DNA of 64,000 nucleotides, taken from Bacillota bacterium (GTDB lineage Bacteria; Bacillota; Sulfobacillia; JAJZIM01). Below, in pieces: positions 4,116-39,524 of this stretch. The DNA is taken from assembly GCA_021810565.1 (NCBI GenBank), contig JAJZIM010000002.1, positions 18,429 through 82,428 of the forward strand, read 5' to 3'. How positions within the stretch are numbered: the first letter of the stretch is position 1; every line of letters begins with the position of its first letter. The position numbers and the translations under genes were made by a program. The notes under the pieces were generated by a model. The model was not told the origin of the DNA, searched no databases, and saw only the letters and a program-made list of their open reading frames with translations.

Positions 4116-5225
4116 TTGCTGCATTATCTTGTGCTGCAGCTTCGCTATATCGTGCTCCCGGACGTGACGGCCACCACGCAGACCATCCTGCTGGAGGCCG
4201 CCTTCTGGCTGGTGTTGACCTTCCTGCTGGGCGGCCTGATCCGCGGCCTGATCCCCCTGAACTGGCTGCGCCGGCGGCTGGGCGGCCGGGGTGCGCGGCC
4301 AGTGGCCTGGGCCACCTTCCTGGGGATGTTGCTGCCCATGTGCAGCTGCGGCGCCATCCCCTTGGGGATCAGCCTGTACTACTTCGGCGCCCGGCTGCCC
4401 ACCGCCCTAGCCTTCATGGGCGCGAACCCCATCATCAACCCGGCGGCAGTCCTGCTCTCCTACGCGCTCTTGGGCCCGCGCTGGACCGCGGCCTACCTGG
4501 CGGCGGGTTTCCTGGTGCCCGTGCTCATGGGCGTGGTCGCCAGCCGCTTCGGGGGGCTGGAGCTGGAGGCCGCCAAGCGCACCGGGGCGCCGCTTTTGAG
4601 CTGGGGGGACGCCGCCGGCCTGAGCCTGCCCCGCCGGGTATTCCACGGCCTGCGCTGGGGCTTCCTCGAGTTGGGTCCTTTAGTGAGCCTGTACGTGCTC
4701 CTGGGCGCCGTGCTCACCGGCGTGGTCACCGCCATCTACCCCCGGGGGATGTCCCTGGACGCGGCGTCGCTGCCCTCCCTGCTGCCCGTGGCCGCCGTGG
4801 CGGGCCTGATGTATGTGTGCGCCGTGGCCTTCATCCCCGCCGTGGCCTATGCCGTGGTGGCCCTGGGGCTGTCCCCCGGCGGCGCCATGGTCTTCCTGAT
4901 CGTGGGGGCCGCCACCAACCTGCCGGAGCTCTTGAGCATCTGGCGCCTCATCGGCCGACGGGCGGTGCTGATTTACGGCCTGGTCTTGATCGGCCTGGCG
5001 CTGGTAGCCGGATGGCTGGTCAACCGCTGGCTGGGGCCGTCCTTCTTTCCGGCGGTGGCGGCGCCGGCCGCCCATGCGGCCCGCCATGCCGCCGCCTTCC
5101 TCTACCCGACGGCGCCCCTGCCCCTGGACCAGGCGGCCATGGGGCTGGTCATCCTGCTGGGCCTATGGGGCCTGGCCGGACGGGTGGCCCGCCGGCTGCG
5201 CCCGAGCGCCCCTCAGCCCAGGTAG
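4116..5225 (+). CDS. DUF318/YraQ-family predicted permease
   Basis: 369 aa with multiple TM segments and the conserved CSCGAIP motif typical of COG0701 permeases. The exact start is uncertain. Confidence 0.65.
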   Translation: MLHYLVLQLRYIVLPDVTATTQTILLEAAFWLVLTFLLGGLIRGLIPLNWLRRRLGGRGARPVAWATFLGMLLPMCSCGAIPLGISLYYFGARLPTALAFMGANPIINPAAVLLSYALLGPRWTAAYLAAGFLVPVLMGVVASRFGGLELEAAKRTGAPLLSWGDAAGLSLPRRVFHGLRWGFLELGPLVSLYVLLGAVLTGVVTAIYPRGMSLDAASLPSLLPVAAVAGLMYVCAVAFIPAVAYAVVALGLSPGGAMVFLIVGAATNLPELLSIWRLIGRRAVLIYGLVLIGLALVAGWLVNRWLGPSFFPAVAAPAAHAARHAAAFLYPTAPLPLDQAAMGLVILLGLWGLAGRVARRLRPSAPQPR

Positions 5226-6314: not shown

Positions 6315-7433
6315 TCAGGCATCGCCCGCCACCACCTTCAGCCGCCCGACCATCCGAGGGGCCACCTTCCGCCAGTCCAGGCGGGCCATGTCGGCCGCCG
6401 CTCGGCGTCCCGTCTCCCTGACCTGAGCCGGGTGGGTGAAGACCCAGCGCATGGCCGCCTTGAGCGCCTCCGGATCCGGGCGCGCCCAGCGGCTGCCCGC
6501 GTAGATCTGATCGTTGGGGTGATCGCAGGGCGGTACCCGCTCCAGACCGGCGACGGCCACCGGATAACCGTTGGCCGCGTCGACGAAATCCCCCGGCGCC
6601 GACCAGGCCGGCAGGATGCAGGGACGGGCGCAGGCCATGGCCTCCGCCGCCGGCAGGTTCCATCCCTCGCCGCGGCTGGCGCTGACGTAGCAGTCCACAG
6701 CGGTGTAGACGGACCCGATCCGCGCCACGCTCACCATTCCCGGCAACAGGACCACCCGCGGTGGCCGGGGAAAGGGCTCGAGCAGCCGCTCCATCTCCCG
6801 CCGGATCTTTTCGCCCCGGGGATCGAAATCAGGCCCGTTGGAGTAGGCCTTGATGAACAGGCAGACGTCCTCCTCCCGCCGGAACTCCCCGGCATAGGCC
6901 GCCAGCAGCAGGTCATACCCCTTGCGGGGCACCCACTCGAAGCTGGACAGAAAGTTGAAGGAGGCCCGCCCCGGCAGCGGCACCGGCGCCAAGCCGGGGT
7001 GGAAACGGCGGGTGTCCACCCCCACCGGCATGAGCTGCAGCCGCTCGGGAGCCACCCCGCTGGCCCGGAAGGTACCCAGGTTGAAGCTGGACGGCACCCA
7101 TACCTCGTCCAGGTCGTTGCAGCGCTCCACCCACAAGGGCGGGATGCGGTCCACCTCCAGCATGGTGTAGCCGATGCACGGCCTGCCCGGCACCCGCTCG
7201 AAGAAGTTGGCCACACTCACGTAGATCACCGGACCCCGCGGGTCCTCCGGGCGCCCTCCCATGCACTCCAACCGGCGCCGCAGCGGTGGATCCAGCTCCA
7301 CCCCGGCATAGCCCCAGGGCAGCGCCCGCAGCGCCACCTCCACCCCCTGCTCCTCCAGATGCACCGCCACCTGGCGCGTCAGTTCCGCGTATCCCGATGC
7401 GTCATATACCGGTCCCTTGACCGTCACCCGCAT
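6315..7433 (-). CDS. glycosyltransferase, GT-B fold (GT4 / 'group 1')
   Basis: ORF 6315..7625 trimmed to M65 (cat at 7431-7433): MRVTVKGPVYDASGYAELTRQ...RGEGWNLPAAEAMACARPCI. EX7E-like C-terminal GT4 motif. Confidence 0.75.
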   Translation of the reverse strand: MRVTVKGPVYDASGYAELTRQVAVHLEEQGVEVALRALPWGYAGVELDPPLRRRLECMGGRPEDPRGPVIYVSVANFFERVPGRPCIGYTMLEVDRIPPLWVERCNDLDEVWVPSSFNLGTFRASGVAPERLQLMPVGVDTRRFHPGLAPVPLPGRASFNFLSSFEWVPRKGYDLLLAAYAGEFRREEDVCLFIKAYSNGPDFDPRGEKIRREMERLLEPFPRPPRVVLLPGMVSVARIGSVYTAVDCYVSASRGEGWNLPAAEAMACARPCILPAWSAPGDFVDAANGYPVAVAGLERVPPCDHPNDQIYAGSRWARPDPEALKAAMRWVFTHPAQVRETGRRAAADMARLDWRKVAPRMVGRLKVVAGDA

Positions 7434-34069: not shown

Positions 34070-34665
34070 GGCGCTGCGGTGGGCAGCACTTCCAGCCCTG
34101 CCGCGCGCAAAAGCCCCGCCAGCCGGAACAGCGGCAGCCCCACCACGTTGAAGAAGCAGCCCTCGATCCGCTCGACGAAGATGGACCCCAGCCCCTGGAC
34201 GGCGTAGGCCCCTGCCTTGTCCAGGGGTTCGCCGCTGTCCACATAGGCCGCGATCTCCCACGGCTCCATCGGGCGCATGTACACCCTCGTGACCTCGCTG
34301 GCCGTCAGGCATCTCCCCGTCTCCACCTCCTTCAGCGCTATACCCGTGTGCACCATATGGGAGCGTCCGGACAAGAGGGTGAGCATCCCTCGGGCCGCCG
34401 CGGCGTCCACCGGCTTGCCCAGAATGCGCCCCCCGACCGCCACCACGGTGTCCGCCCCCAGCACCACACCACCGGTGCGTCCGGCGGCCACCGCCTCCGC
34501 CTTGGCCCGGGCCAGCCGGCACACCGCCTGCTCCGCCGGCAACCCGGGCGGCACCTCCTCCGGCACCCCGCTTCGGCACACCTCGAAGGTCAGCCCCAGT
34601 TGGCGCAAGAGCTGAGCGCGCCGCGGCGAGGCCGAGGCCAGCACCAAGGCGACGGGCCTAGGCAC
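34057..34665 (-). CDS. maf: Maf-like nucleoside-triphosphate pyrophosphatase (septum formation protein Maf)
   Basis: MPRPVALVLASASPRRAQLLRQLGLTFEV...ADTVV...GKP...AGAYAVQG. Confidence 0.9.
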   Translation of the reverse strand: MPRPVALVLASASPRRAQLLRQLGLTFEVCRSGVPEEVPPGLPAEQAVCRLARAKAEAVAAGRTGGVVLGADTVVAVGGRILGKPVDAAAARGMLTLLSGRSHMVHTGIALKEVETGRCLTASEVTRVYMRPMEPWEIAAYVDSGEPLDKAGAYAVQGLGSIFVERIEGCFFNVVGLPLFRLAGLLRAAGLEVLPTAAPTSS

Positions 34666-34987
34666 GCCGCACCAGCAGCCACAAAGCCACCACCGCGGCG
34701 GCTATCCCGGCCAGGTTGACGTGCAGCCAGATGGACAGCCCCAGGATGTACAGGTTGAGCCCCGTCAGAGAGAAGCCGTAGGGCTTGGCCAGGAAGGGGG
34801 CATAGGGGGCCGCAAGGCTACCGATCACCGATCCGGCCAGGAGCGCCACGAACAGACTCAGGACGAACAGCCACCCGTTGATCGACCTTCCGCGCACCGC
34901 TTCGCCTCCCACACCCGGGCAATGCCTAGGGGAATTCGTCCCGAGCGGGTCAAAATCCTGTCTACCTGCCTCTGACGCGCTCCCCAC
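34658..34987 (-). CDS. small hydrophobic membrane protein (possibly DUF4321-like; start uncertain)
   Basis: 2-3 TM segments (...WLFVLSLFVALLAGSVIGSLAAPY...LNLYILGLSIWLHVNLAGIAAAVVALWLLV). The track ORF start overlaps the tnpB 3' end by 130 nt. An internal GTG (~34849) would give a 63-aa protein. Confidence 0.4.
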   Translation of the reverse strand: MGSASEAGRQDFDPLGTNSPRHCPGVGGEAVRGRSINGWLFVLSLFVALLAGSVIGSLAAPYAPFLAKPYGFSLTGLNLYILGLSIWLHVNLAGIAAAVVALWLLVRRA

Positions 34988-36672
34988 GGCTGAAGCCGGG
35001 GGGTTCTACCGGAGGACCCCATTACGCCTTTTCCGGGCTCTCCTGGCCCCGTGGTCCCATGCCTCAGGCCGGCAAGGCCAGGGGCACGGACCTCAGCATC
35101 ATGGCTTCCACGATTTCCGACCGTGGCTCCGGCTTTCGTCGCGACGGGCTCAGACCCGAAGCCCAGGAGTCGAGCCTCCTTGAGCCCCAGGGAGGCAGGA
35201 GTCCAGTTCCCGCCGACTCGCCCGTTGGTTTCGGCCTGCAGCCGCTCGAACGCCGCACGCAGGAGGTCGTCCCCACCCGGCCAGGCCTCTTGTGCTCGGC
35301 CCGCGTTCAGCAGCCATATCTGCCGGTCGCATGACAGCGCCATGGGTTCCACGAAGGACGCCAGGTAGGCGCTGTACAGGTCGCGCTGGGCCACCGCGCC
35401 GCAGGCCGGGCAGCGGTGCCAGCGAAGGGACCGGGGCTTTTTCTCCCGGTGTCCGCAGTGGCAAACCTGGGACAGGGCGGTGGTCCGCGTGGGGAAGGCT
35501 CGCACGGCTCCGCCGGCACTCTCAGCCTTGCGGGAAAGCCGGGCGAAGAACATCCCCGGAGCGCGGAAGCCCACCGATTTGCCGAAACGCTTCTGCCAGC
35601 CCCTAATCGACACGTCCTCGTGGAGGAAGACATCCCCGAGGGCGAGCACCCGGTTAACCAGACGCCCCTGCAATGATTTGCGGTGTGCCGCCAGGGTGCG
35701 ATGGGCATCTCCCAAAGCCGCCTGCGTCTTCTTCATCCCCAGGGACGTGCGCCATTTCTTCGGTCCCTTGCGGATGGTGCCGTTGGGGTGGTAGTTCCCG
35801 GGGTTGTTGGCCCGGCGCTGCCGGTCCAGCTTGCGGGAGAGCCGCCGGATCTCCAGGTGCTTCGGCATCAGTTCCCCGCAGAAGGGAGTGACGAGCACAT
35901 GGTCCTCTCCCACGGCGGCCAGGGCGGGGGGCCCCGCGTCCAGGCCCACGGTCCCCTTCCCCAGGGGATATTTGACCGAGCCGTCCGGGTTCAGCTTACG
36001 GTACGGCTCGCCCTCTAGGACCAGTTGGGCAGAAAAACGGTTGCGCATCCCCATCTTCCGGCGCACGATACGCACGTACTTCACCCGGCAGGACAGCCCA
36101 TGATTGACCACGGGATCATTCCGATCGATGACGGCGTCAAGCGCCAACCCCCTCCACTCCACGGCGCCGTCGCGCCAACGGATGCCGGCGTCGTTGCTCT
36201 TGCCCTCCACGGTGTCCATTTGATTCTTCCCCTTGAACCTGACGCGCCGGGCCAGGCCGAGGGTTACCCGCTGCTGGGCACCGAAGGCCCGGGTGGCCAG
36301 CTTCTGGGCGACGTGGACGTCCAGGTGTTCTCCCAGCCAACTGCGGCGTACCTGCACGGCGTATCTCTGCAGGCCGTAGTCGGAAAAGCCGTGGGCCTTT
36401 TTCGCCCGGGAAAATGCCTTGGCCCTTTCCTTTCGTTCCTCGTCGGTGCTGTGCGGCATGGCCGTAGCGGCCCGGTAGGCTTTGGACTGACGAACCAGTT
36501 CCCAGCGACGGCAGGCCTCGCCCAGGCAGGCATTGTACAACTGCCGCGCCGCCTCCAGGCCGGCGTTGAGCACCCGCTCGTCCACCGGGCTGGTCCGGAG
36601 CGGGACCTCGCACACGAAGGATGGAGTTTCAGGCCGACTTTTGGTCTTCAACGTACTGCTTGATGAAGGCAA
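34858..36672 (-). CDS. tnpB: TnpB-like RuvC nuclease (IS200/IS605 OrfB, IS1341-type; solo, no tnpA seen)
   Basis: TTG start. N-terminus ...FVCEVPLRTSPVDERVLNAGLEAARQLYNACLGEA... is the typical OrfB N-terminal region. The zinc ribbon plus RuvC-III is ...CHCGHREKKPRSLRWHRCPACGAVAQRDLYSAYLA... 604 aa, i.e. ~170 aa longer than usual at the C-terminus (Gly/Arg-rich). Confidence 0.75.
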   Translation of the reverse strand: MPSSSSTLKTKSRPETPSFVCEVPLRTSPVDERVLNAGLEAARQLYNACLGEACRRWELVRQSKAYRAATAMPHSTDEERKERAKAFSRAKKAHGFSDYGLQRYAVQVRRSWLGEHLDVHVAQKLATRAFGAQQRVTLGLARRVRFKGKNQMDTVEGKSNDAGIRWRDGAVEWRGLALDAVIDRNDPVVNHGLSCRVKYVRIVRRKMGMRNRFSAQLVLEGEPYRKLNPDGSVKYPLGKGTVGLDAGPPALAAVGEDHVLVTPFCGELMPKHLEIRRLSRKLDRQRRANNPGNYHPNGTIRKGPKKWRTSLGMKKTQAALGDAHRTLAAHRKSLQGRLVNRVLALGDVFLHEDVSIRGWQKRFGKSVGFRAPGMFFARLSRKAESAGGAVRAFPTRTTALSQVCHCGHREKKPRSLRWHRCPACGAVAQRDLYSAYLASFVEPMALSCDRQIWLLNAGRAQEAWPGGDDLLRAAFERLQAETNGRVGGNWTPASLGLKEARLLGFGSEPVATKAGATVGNRGSHDAEVRAPGLAGLRHGTTGPGEPGKGVMGSSGRTPRLQPWGARQRQVDRILTRSGRIPLGIARVWEAKRCAEGRSTGGCSS

Positions 36673-36947
36673 GCGGCGCCCCCCCCACTAAAGACGTTGC
36701 CGTTGGGCTTGAATCGGCGAACCATGGACAAAGCATACCACGCACCCCCGTATGATAGCAACCCGCAGGTGGCTGTTCCCCAAGGCTGAAGCCCGGGGCT
36801 TGCGCCGCCCTGCTCTTTGGTCATATAGTGCCGCGGATGAATTTTTCCTGCCAGCGTCCCCGGGCCGTCCAGCTTCCGGCAACGCGCCGGCCGGCTCCGG
36901 GAGCTTTCCCGAACCGGCCGGATAGGGGTCAGGAAAACCGTTCCACT

Positions 36948-39524
36948 TTAGGCCGCCTGCAGCACGATCTCCCCGCCCTGGGCGTCCACCCGCACCTTCT
37001 GTCCCTCCTGGAACTCCCCCTTCAGCAGGGCCATGGCCAGCCGGTCCTGGATCTCCCGCTGGATGATCCGCTTCAAAGGCCGCGCCCCGAAAGCCTGATC
37101 GTAGCCGTGCTCCGCCAGCCAGTCCTTGGCCTGATCCGTAAGCTCCAGGGCGATCCCCCGCTCTCCCAGGCGTCGCTCCAGCAGGGCCGCTTGGATGTCG
37201 ATGATCTGCCGCAGGTCGTCTTGGGTGAGGGCCCTAAAGATCACGATCTCGTCGATGCGGTTCAGGAACTCCGGACGGAAGTGGCCGTGCAGCACTTCCA
37301 GCACCCGCTGACGGGTCACCTCGGCGGTGCCGGCACCGAAAAGCTCGCTGCCCAGGTTGGAGGTCATGATCACCACGGTGTTGCGGAAATCCACCGTGCG
37401 CCCCTGCCCGTCGGTCAGGCGTCCGTCGTCCAAGAGCTGCAGCAGGACGTTGAAGACCTCCGGATGGGCCTTCTCGATCTCGTCCAGGAGCACCACCGAG
37501 TAGGGATGGCGGCGCACCGCCTCGGTTAGCTGGCCGCCCTCCTCGTAGCCGACATATCCGGGAGGCGCTCCGATTAGGCGGGCCACCGCGTGGCGCTCCA
37601 TGTACTCGCTCATGTCCAGGCGCACCATGGCCCGCTCGTCGTCGAAGAGAAATTCCGCCAGGGCCCGGGCCAGTTCCGTCTTGCCCACCCCGGTGGGTCC
37701 CAGGAAGATGAAGGACCCGATGGGCCGGTTGGGATCGGAAAGCCCGGTACGGGCCCGCCGCACCGCGTTGGCCACGGCCTCCACGGCCTGGTCCTGGCCC
37801 ACCACCCGCCGGTGCAGCCGTTCCTCCATCCGCACCAGCTTGTCCATCTCTCCCTCCATCAGGCGCGCCACGGGGATGCCGGTCCACTTGGCCACCACCT
37901 GGGCGATGTCCTCGTCGTCCACCTCCTCCTTGATCATGCGCCCCTTGGCCTGCCGCTCCTCCAAGCGCGCCTGCTCCGCGGCCAGCTCCTTGGTCAGGGC
38001 GGGCAGCTCGCCGTAGCGCAGCTGCGCAGCCCGCTCCAAGTCGCCCTGGCGCTCGACCCGCTGCTCCTCGTTGCGGATGTCCTCGATGCGCGCCTTCAAG
38101 GTTTGCAGCCTGACGACCACCGCCTTCTCCGCCTCCCAGCGGGACTTGAGGCCGGCCGCGCGCTCCCGCAGTTCGGACAGTTCCCGCTCCAGCTTGGCCA
38201 GCCGCTCCCGGGCCGCCCCCTCCGACTCCTTGGACAGGGCCTGCCGCTCTATCTCCAGCTGCCGGATGCGCCGCTCCACCTCGTCCACCTCCGCCGGCAC
38301 GGAGTCGATCTCGATCCGCAGCCGGGACGCCGCCTCGTCCACCAGGTCGATGGCCTTGTCCGGCAGGAAGCGGTCGGCGATGTAGCGGTGGGAGAGGACG
38401 GCGGCCGCCACCAGGGCCGAGTCCTTGATGCGCACCCCGTGGTGCACCTCGTATCGCTCTTTTAGTCCCCGCAGGATGGCGATGGTGTCCTCCACGTTGG
38501 GCTCGCCCACGAAGATGGGCTGGAAGCGCCGCTCCAAGGCTGCGTCCTTCTCCACATGCTTGCGGTACTCGTCCAGGGTGGTGGCCCCGATGGCCCGCAA
38601 CTCGCCCCGGGCCAGGGCCGGCTTCATCAGGTTGGCCGCATCCACGGCACCCTCGGCGGCTCCGGCTCCCACCAGGGTGTGCAGTTCGTCGATGAACAGG
38701 ACGATCTTGCCCTCCGCCGCCTGGATCTCCTTCAGCACGGCCTTCAGCCGGTCCTCGAACTCCCCCCGGTACTTGGACCCCGCGATGAGCGCCCCCACGT
38801 CCAGGGCCACCACCCGCTTGTCCTTCAGGCCCTCCGGCACATCCCCGGACACGATGCGCTGGGCCAGCCCTTCGGCGATGGCCGTCTTGCCCACCCCGGG
38901 CTCGCCGATGAGCACCGGGTTGTTCTTGGTGCGCCGGGACAGCACCTGGATCACCCGCCGGATCTCCTCGTCCCGACCGATGACCGGGTCCAGCTTGCCG
39001 CGCTTGGCCTGCGCCGTCAGGTCGCGGCTGTAACGCTCCAAGGCTTGGTACTTGTCCTCGGGGTTCTCGTCGGTCACCCGGTGGCTGCCCCGCACTTCCG
39101 CCAAGGCGCGATAGATGTTCTCGTGGTCCACCCCCGCCTCGCGCAGGATGCGCCGCACCTCCCCGCCGTCCTCGGAGGCCAGGGCCAAGAGCAGGTGCTC
39201 CGTGCTGATGTACTCGTCCCGCAGGGCCTCCGCCTCCCGGCCAGCCCGCTCCAGGACCTTGGCCAGGCGCGGCGAGAGGTACTGGCTCGCCCCGGCCCCC
39301 TGGACCCGCGGCAATCTGCCCACCGCCGCTTCGGCCTGCTCCCGCAACCGTTGCGGCTTGGCCTCCAGCCGCTCCAGCACGGGGGCGACCACCCCCTCCG
39401 GCTGCTCGATCAGGCTCAGCAGCAGGTGCTCCGGCGTGATCTCCTGTTGGCCGTGCTCCGCCGCCCGGCGCTGGGCGTCTTGAAGCGCCTCTTGGGACTT
39501 CACGGTCAAGCGATCCGTGCTCAC
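36948..39524 (-). CDS. clpB: ATP-dependent chaperone ClpB
   Basis: 858 aa: [38 protein letters not shown]..., two AAA+ modules (GEPGVGKT..., GPTGVGKT...). 4-nt overlap with the upstream J-protein gene. Confidence 0.95.

Follow-up and report, generated by a model that had tools for sequence, protein, structure and literature searches.

A 64-kb stretch of a contig from a member of the Bacillota (GenBank assembly GCA_021810565.1, contig JAJZIM010000002.1) was analysed, and 'the window' refers below to the whole of its 64,000 nucleotides. On the minus strand of the window, between the clpB heat-shock operon and a block formed by a small gene and the maf, radC, mre and min genes, lies a reading frame of 604 codons resembling tnpB, the gene for the RNA-guided nuclease of IS200/IS605 insertion sequences (Table 1). 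A preliminary description of this DNA had pointed to the frame, and both peptide strings that it quoted were present in the translation. The start codon is uncertain, as other annotations place it 7–29 codons later. The frame belongs to an insertion element whose two ends, hairpins, target and predicted guide RNA could be located to the base or nearly so, and whose coding sequence runs on past the element into the DNA of the host.

The limits of the element were established by comparison with an unoccupied copy of the site. A contig of the same species, L087 (GCA_028064995.1), was found through an exact match to the Maf protein encoded next to the element. In L087, tnpB is absent, and the small gene of 79 aa and maf come straight after clpB. 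The two sequences were 99.5–99.6% identical over 12.6 kb (blastn), with the insertion as their sole structural difference. Global alignment matched window 37064..36820 to L087 5450..5694 and window 34971..34600 to L087 5695..6066, leaving zero shared bases at the junctions and no target duplication. With ^ marking a junction, the empty allele reads cactatATGAC^aggcaggCagacagg, that is ...TATGAC^AGGCAGG..., and the occupied allele reads cactatatgac^CAAAGAGCAGG...GCGCGTCAG^aggcaggTagacagg, that is ...TATGAC^[1848 bp]^AGGCAGG.... Because the empty site exists in a 99.5%-identical strain, we conclude that 34972..36819 is a real insertion, with exact boundaries and TGAC as its target motif. This bears out the proposal in the preliminary description of a tnpA-less insertion between the two gene blocks. 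The interval given there, 34658–36947, was wider than the element, as the neighbouring gene ends at 34658 and position 36947 adjoins the clpB stop codon.

The comparison of alleles suggests strongly that insertion or excision at the site was very recent, and that the element is recently mobile as well as well delimited. The same insertion was present in 19 contigs from several samples, at 99.9–100% identity to the window; these contigs represent the same strain and are not evidence of deep fixation. Three cluster members (P0246–P0248) were considered as extra copies elsewhere and rejected, as all three represent this very locus in this strain and differ in where the start codon was called.

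Table 1. Positions in the window of the insertion element, its parts and the adjoining features
Feature	Coordinates	Strand	Remarks
Whole insertion element	34972..36819	minus	1848 bp; IS200/IS605 family, tnpB-only (IS1341-like); global alignment with empty site L087
Target / TAM-like tetranucleotide TGAC (context TATGAC)	36820..36823	minus	Directly 5' of left end; empty versus occupied site
Left end (LE), junction to TTG start	36673..36819	minus	Subterminal hairpin and ~105-nt leader; tnpA absent
LE subterminal imperfect hairpin CCCCGGGCTTCAGCCTTGGGG, TTCA loop	36778..36798	minus	Foot 21 nt from left junction; DNA fold displays hairpin
tnpB reading frame	34858..36672	minus	TTG start, 604 aa
Folded TnpB core, ~aa 14–484	36633..35221	minus	AlphaFold2
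RuvC catalytic residues D245 (35938–35940), E352 (35617–35619), D431 (35380–35382) and zinc ribbon	35380..35940	minus	Alignment A1
Candidate ωRNA scaffold gene	34972..35225	minus	Wholly inside tnpB frame, reaches right end; 5' end approximate
RE subterminal hairpin CCCCCCGGCTTCAGCCGTGGGG, TTCA loop, one C/T mismatch	34982..35003	minus	Right end 10 nt beyond foot at ...AGCGCGTCAG (34972)
Predicted ωRNA guide, host flank AGGCAGGTAGACAGGATTTT	34952..34971	minus	Immediately 3' of right end; position from RE junction and TnpB mechanism
tnpB frame run-on into host DNA, 38 codons including stop	34858..34971	minus	Outside element; present in empty site at 98.9% identity
Neighbouring 79-aa small membrane-protein gene	34658..34897	minus	GTG start 34897, preceded by GGGAGG; as called in L087/L088

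The two ends carry similar subterminal hairpins. The left end (LE), which had been expected upstream of the TTG start and was found there, contains a conserved GCGCAAG motif followed by its hairpin, an arrangement common to the window and its relatives. The LE hairpin and that of the right end (RE) make up a direct repeat (D7) of 25 nt with 88% identity and a spacing of 1796, each copy being self-complementary, and a search for the hairpin motif returned just these two sites in 64 kb. Terminal inverted repeats were absent from the element. The right end reads ...GTCAG, and across the family (~30 loci with the motif) the RE follows the pattern gaaCCCCCCGGCTT[T/C]AGCCGTGGGGAG(n)TCA[G/A], beyond which the flanks are unrelated. 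The loop of the RE hairpin is TTTAG in most relatives and so supplies the stop codon (TAG) of tnpB; in the window it is TTCAG, and a stop-less TTCA loop occurs in many relatives too. TGAC was also found directly 5' of LE in relatives L095, L134, L102, L159, L160, L115, L121, L165 and L147, and overall in at least 10 related loci, with TTAC or TGAT instead in a few relatives; this consensus rests on about 10 loci, since LE loops vary and the regular expression for the LE hairpin matched only some loci. By analogy with ISDra2 and IS608, TGAC may act as the transposon-adjacent motif (TAM). The lack of inverted repeats and of a target duplication, the specific 5' target and the matching subterminal hairpins together indicate an IS200/IS605 architecture.

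The protein core has the features of an intact TnpB. The only Pfam domain was the Cas12f1-like TNB zinc ribbon (PF07282; aa 373–435, 35.1 bits, above the cutoff of 26.3). The catalytic residues, which the preliminary description had marked for checking, are intact: in an alignment of 22 sequences (A1), D245 (GLDAG), E352 (HED) and D431 (QRD) of the RuvC site were invariant, as were the four cysteines of the CxC...CxxC zinc ribbon (C404, C406, C421, C424). The A1 profile matched the structures of ISDra2 TnpB (8bf8/8exa/8h1j), ISFba1 TnpB (8iaz), LaTranC and Fanzor2, and the profile alignments placed E352 on TEHL and D431 on RDENAA of ISDra2 TnpB and D245 on GIDLG of ISFba1 TnpB. AlphaFold2 modelled aa 14–484 with high confidence, the predicted local distance difference test (pLDDT) being mostly >80. 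A Foldseek search of the PDB ranked ISDra2 TnpB 8h1j (E 1.1e-15), ISFba1 8iaz (2.1e-14) and 8exa (9.4e-13) ahead of Cas12f and Fanzor2; the top matches, to ISDra2 and ISFba1 TnpB, are ternary complexes. The generic TnpB profile ends at aa 436, and a family-specific segment that is conserved in A1 and folded in the model continues from aa 437 to 484. Sequence and structural model thus predict that tnpB encodes a catalytically intact TnpB, with nuclease activity and ~480–500 functional residues.

The 3' part of the frame also contains the candidate gene for the guide RNA (ωRNA). A consensus structure was computed with RNAalifold from an alignment of 31 relatives reaching from residue ~474 to the end of RE (A2). 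Compensatory changes were present in 20 of its 35 pairs. The structure had 96% of cells paired (78.7% in shuffles), 177 cells changed on both sides (47.7 in shuffles) and a covariation score of 0.517 (0.185 in shuffles, with 0/500 as good; ≤0.143 in slid controls). Given the number of independent pair types, such covariation is unlikely to have arisen by chance. In the window, the long-range stem P1 is kept by fully compensatory changes (ACGGGC/GCCCGT, as against the consensus ACCTGC/GCGGGT), and P2, P3, most of P4 and the RE hairpin are retained as well; a fold of the single sequence recovered P1, P2, P3 and the RE hairpin. When the A2 profile was used in an nhmmer search, the module was found in 81 of 83 loci, once in each, in the orientation of tnpB and immediately adjoining its core, and the two remaining loci run out of sequence. 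These observations of conservation and covariation indicate that the last ~250 nt form the ωRNA scaffold, for which transcription and processing are predicted. The proposal that an ωRNA and RE lie at 34700–35200 was therefore right as to a conserved structured RNA and an RE hairpin. Its limits have shifted: the scaffold occupies ~35225..34972 and the guide would start at 34971, and 34700–34897 belongs to the neighbouring gene.

A guide length of 16–20 nt was assumed from characterized TnpBs. The empty allele TATGAC^AGGCAGGCAGACAGGATTTT amounts to the TAM plus the guide sequence with one mismatch at position 8. By analogy with such TnpBs, the empty allele would be a sequence that the element's TnpB–ωRNA recognizes, one mismatch apart.

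TnpB homologues numbered >3800. Those of the two nearest groups, at 74% and 68% aa identity, belong to complete IS605-type elements (L001–L006), in which a Y1 tnpA of 132 aa precedes tnpB by 6 nt. Among 80 metagenomic relatives, a Y1 tnpA match adjoined tnpB in ~30 and none was seen in ~50, some of the latter being on contigs without upstream sequence. As only ~105 nt separate the LE hairpin from the TTG start in the window, with no tnpA among them, the element is non-autonomous and IS1341-like; it is by the absence of tnpA that the tnpB-only IS1341 group is defined.

The ends of the tnpA-bearing relatives differ from those of the window element. In L001 (2505–2560 versus 4640–4670) and L005, the LE hairpin CCCACTCATTTTATGGGTGGG is unlike its own RE hairpin CCCACGGCTTCAGCCGTGGG in both loop and stem, with TTAC as the 5' target; the window element has TGAC in this position, and its two hairpins are near-identical. 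An LE similar to that of the window is found in more distant relatives (L095, L102, L115). This pattern hints at an exchange of ends between sub-lineages.

Loss of tnpA could be one step in the decay of the element, the frame then drifting towards a pseudogene with its missing stop codon as a symptom. Such a relic would explain why tnpA is present in the closest relatives and not in this copy, why the stop in the hairpin loop is missing, why the RE hairpin contains a mismatch that close relatives do not have, and why the window ωRNA has the lowest family-profile score (77 bits). It would also fit the ωRNA, which in the window and L001 is without the near-invariant family motif GATGCTGTA and has a different hairpin there (A2). 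This hairpin, at ~35075–35140 (A2 columns 199–207), is longer and GC-rich and takes the place of the family element; segment TCCGTG can pair in two alternative ways, with CCCGGA or CATGGGA, and compensatory differences between the window and L001 back both. The sharing of the variant with L001 bears directly on decay: because L001 carries tnpA and its TnpB differs by 26%, the ωRNA of the two is best read, on comparative grounds, as an old maintained variant. Further, the frame has neither a frameshift nor an internal stop and retains the residues invariant in A1, although these are present by construction, and the ωRNA stems are kept via compensatory changes. Neither a tnpB-only element nor a stop-less TTCA loop is unusual, given the frequencies in relatives cited above, and the insertion or excision was very recent. 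We consider it unlikely that the element is a decaying relic.

The length of the frame was examined in detail, since the preliminary description had attributed to the protein a C-terminal extension of ~170 aa. The frame does continue ~168 codons beyond the end of the generic profile; this is not a feature of the protein, however, as the folded part ends at ~aa 484. AlphaFold2 predicted aa 485–604 to be disordered, with pLDDT 24–35 and no consistent secondary structure. Among 30 relatives, the position of the stop codon with respect to the RE end varied between −155 and +114 nt, the TAG in the RE loop (TTTAG) being the commonest stop, and the window (+114 nt) had the furthest run-on measured; its frame stays open because its loop reads TTCAG rather than TTTAG. 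The closest relative, P0002, ends at aa 504 with TGA where the window has GGA, and the next ~170 nt of P0002, which are non-coding, are ~90% identical to the 'extension' DNA of the window. Divergence between the window and L001 at the three codon positions was 0.17/0.14/0.35 in the core and 0.13/0.09/0.16 in the tail. The tail is more conserved than the core and has little excess of third-position change, which indicates constraint at the level of RNA or DNA. Past the right end, the run-on extends over the 5' untranslated region of the neighbouring 79-aa gene and 40 nt into its coding sequence, so that the overlap of the two genes reported earlier does exist. At the local base composition, the chance of 43 stop-free codons is ~0.33.

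A genuine, functional C-terminal extension of ~120–170 residues, either a new domain or a disordered interaction tail, would account for a frame open over 604 codons and for the many relatives of 505–545 aa that share the tail motifs GRxxPxSFG and ...GRTPRL. The shared motifs, however, originate from the DNA of the ωRNA stems and the RE hairpin: ...GRTPRL is translated hairpin DNA, which other homologues read in another frame (EPPGF..., alignment A1). The predicted disorder, the variable position of the stop, the early end of P0002 and the pattern of codon-position divergence all argue against an extension, and the empty site also contains the DNA of the final 38 codons, which belongs to the host. 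A functional extension is therefore very unlikely. We conclude that the folded protein ends near aa 484, that the later ~120 codons are a read-through of the ωRNA gene, the RE hairpin and 114 nt of host DNA, and that the '170-residue tail' is a frame running on since GC-rich DNA has few stops.

Taken together, the results make it highly probable that the element belongs to the IS200/IS605 family as a non-autonomous, tnpB-only form, that its TnpB and ωRNA are intact, and that its tail is not an extension of the protein. It is extremely unlikely to be a domesticated or immobile TnpB derivative (a TldR-like repressor, or a fixed host gene regulating adjacent operons): lack of tnpA in the element and in the 64-kb window, its orientation, which is that of the two housekeeping operons flanking it, and the recurrence of the insertion in 19 contigs from several samples are what such a gene would show, but the RuvC triad is intact and invariant, both transposon ends and their hairpins are intact, the site is polymorphic between 99.5%-identical strains, and the contigs with the insertion are near-identical to the window and so of the same strain. 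TldRs are nuclease-dead TnpB-like repressors that have lost the RuvC residues, have a truncated C-terminus and lack transposon ends.

A number of observations weigh against the reading as a tnpB-only element with a working ωRNA. NCBIfam NF040570 (guided_TnpB) matched aa 26–436 (model 6–384/389) with 78.3 bits (E 6.7e-22), which is below the curated cutoff of 100. No Y1 transposase was detected by tblastn in the element or the 64-kb window (best E 0.7), in agreement with the preliminary description, and a TnpA acting in trans is thus assumed. The folding energies of the LE and RE hairpins were no better than those of shuffles (z = −0.25 and −0.62) in this GC-rich DNA; since folding energy alone is not significant, the evidence for the hairpins is their position and their conservation throughout the family. 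The same holds for the folding energy of the ωRNA, which was not significantly better than in shuffles (z = −1.63), and the structure tested for covariation came from A2 itself, so that the difference from the slid controls is overstated. A search of Rfam with the window region and eight related loci gave no family at threshold for the 3' RNA, so that the structured RNA anticipated in the preliminary description was supported by conservation and covariation and not by a known family. The mismatch in the RE hairpin and the missing family motif count in the same direction, and function of the window ωRNA variant is not assured. Finally, the tail is in the same frame as the core, as is the RE hairpin, in 20 of 31 relatives, which leaves room for translation of part of it with some function.

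Transcription signals were sought as well. A strict sigma-70 scan of 34600–37000 returned no promoter, and terminator-like matches were not above shuffles; a weak promoter candidate, TTGCTA-18-TATGCT, was seen by eye in the LE leader and was not significant.

The element shares with IS608 of Helicobacter pylori and ISDra2 of Deinococcus radiodurans the absence of terminal inverted repeats and of target duplication, insertion 3' of a short specific sequence (TTAC for IS608, TTGAT for ISDra2, TGAC here), similar imperfect subterminal hairpins at both ends, and the order tnpB then RE. Its close relatives have Y1 tnpA upstream of tnpB, as in these systems, and the right end of IS608 lies 10 nt past the hairpin foot, the spacing seen in the window. 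It differs in lacking tnpA, as the IS1341 group does, and in the 21 nt that separate its LE junction from the hairpin foot. The TnpB–ωRNA complexes of ISDra2 and ISFba1 (8h1j, 8exa, 8bf8, 8iaz) were the best structural matches, and their RuvC D/E/D residues and zinc ribbon align with those of the window protein; in these systems too, the ωRNA is encoded by the 3' end of tnpB plus RE and the guide comes from the flank. The window protein is divergent in sequence, scoring under the NCBIfam cutoff; in structural alignment it is only 14–16% identical to ISDra2 TnpB and has ~75 more folded residues. Moreover, its scaffold lies wholly within the reading frame, instead of just overlapping the 3' end, and matches no Rfam family at threshold. 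Closer in sequence is ISChy9 orfB, the UniRef name of P0030 from Calderihabitans maritimus, with 57% identity over 79% of the query, the same domain order and the C-terminal segment ...LNAGRAxxAWPGxDxLLRAA; P0030, however, has 465 aa and ends before most of the ωRNA region.

One Rfam family recurred below threshold. HgcC (RF00062) matched window 34960–35081 on the minus strand with 17.9 bits and L124 3986–4112 with 23.1 bits, exactly on the RE-proximal ωRNA region, and was the only recurrent match; as the gathering score is 50, the window family is not a member by the Rfam criterion. Sense-overlapping transcripts (sotRNAs) have been described at the 3' end of archaeal IS1341-type tnpB genes (Gomes-Filho et al., 2015; PMC4615843), and the authors found a UUCA-tetraloop RE hairpin both in IS1341-type transcripts and in HgcC. 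The TTCA/TTTA RE loop of the window family fits this tetraloop. The resemblance to HgcC is probably limited to the RE hairpin, and HgcC may be an old, unrecognized ωRNA family.

These features suggest how the element could move and persist. A Y1 (HUH) TnpA supplied in trans would recognize both subterminal hairpins on single-stranded DNA, cutting 3' of TGAC on the left and 3' of ...GTCAG on the right, so that the element would leave as a circular single strand. It would then insert 3' of a TGAC with no target duplication, as in the precise, duplication-free junctions observed. A structured ωRNA would be made from the last ~250 nt, its 3' end reading into the host flank and so gaining a guide of ~16–20 nt. 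TnpB–ωRNA would cleave the excised donor joint (TGAC + AGGCAGGTAGACAGG...), and recombinational repair from a copy bearing the element would restore the insertion, by which the element would be kept. Retention by cleavage has reportedly been demonstrated for ISDra2 and GstIS elements. On this model the 604-codon frame would consist of the folded part to ~484, the ωRNA gene, a missed TAG in the RE loop, 114 nt of host DNA and a stop.

The ωRNA region might, at a low probability, hold something more. The architecture shared by the window and L001, in which a longer GC-rich hairpin replaces the near-invariant GAUGCUGUA, may be distinct, and translation through a scaffold located inside the frame could couple to folding or processing of the ωRNA. 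With such coupling, synthesis of the nuclease would be linked in cis to production of its guide RNA, a regulatory connection not described for ISDra2-type TnpBs.

On the downstream side, the neighbouring gene most likely starts at 34897 and not at 34987; its 79-aa product had only weak Pfam matches, to DUF4321 and DUF2569. The element lies ~75 nt upstream of this start, and the insertion splits the native upstream region of the gene. On the other side, between the clpB stop codon at 36948 and the insertion point, a GC-rich palindrome (CCGGCCGG...CCGGCCGG) with no T tract is found at ~36895–36930 (minus strand) and may be the terminator of the clpB operon. If it leaks, heat-shock transcription would enter the element.

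The source metagenome-assembled genomes (MAGs) are labelled Thermaerobacter sp. As the nearest non-self Maf homologue was only ~55–60% identical among 5.8 billion proteins, the host lineage appears to be poorly sampled; a Maf-based scan of contigs for the empty site in related species reached only distant relatives, at ≤55% identity. In another Thermaerobacter MAG, L001 contains beside its related element a cobalamin riboswitch (7010–7175; 77.8 bits, E 1e-17) upstream of a CobS gene, which is unrelated to the present finding.

Scientifically, the element is routine: TnpB insertion sequences form a very large family, to which it adds one well-delimited example. Its practical value lies in the two natural alleles, empty and occupied, which fix the ends to the base and yield TGAC as a candidate TAM as well as a native pair of guide and target. 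A TnpB of ~480–500 residues from a probable thermophile, together with a scaffold supported by covariation, offers the inputs for testing a thermostable, compact RNA-guided nuclease. For annotation of the family, the locus demonstrates that GC-rich tnpB frames can run through their own ωRNA gene and beyond the element, giving rise to spurious extensions and false gene overlaps.

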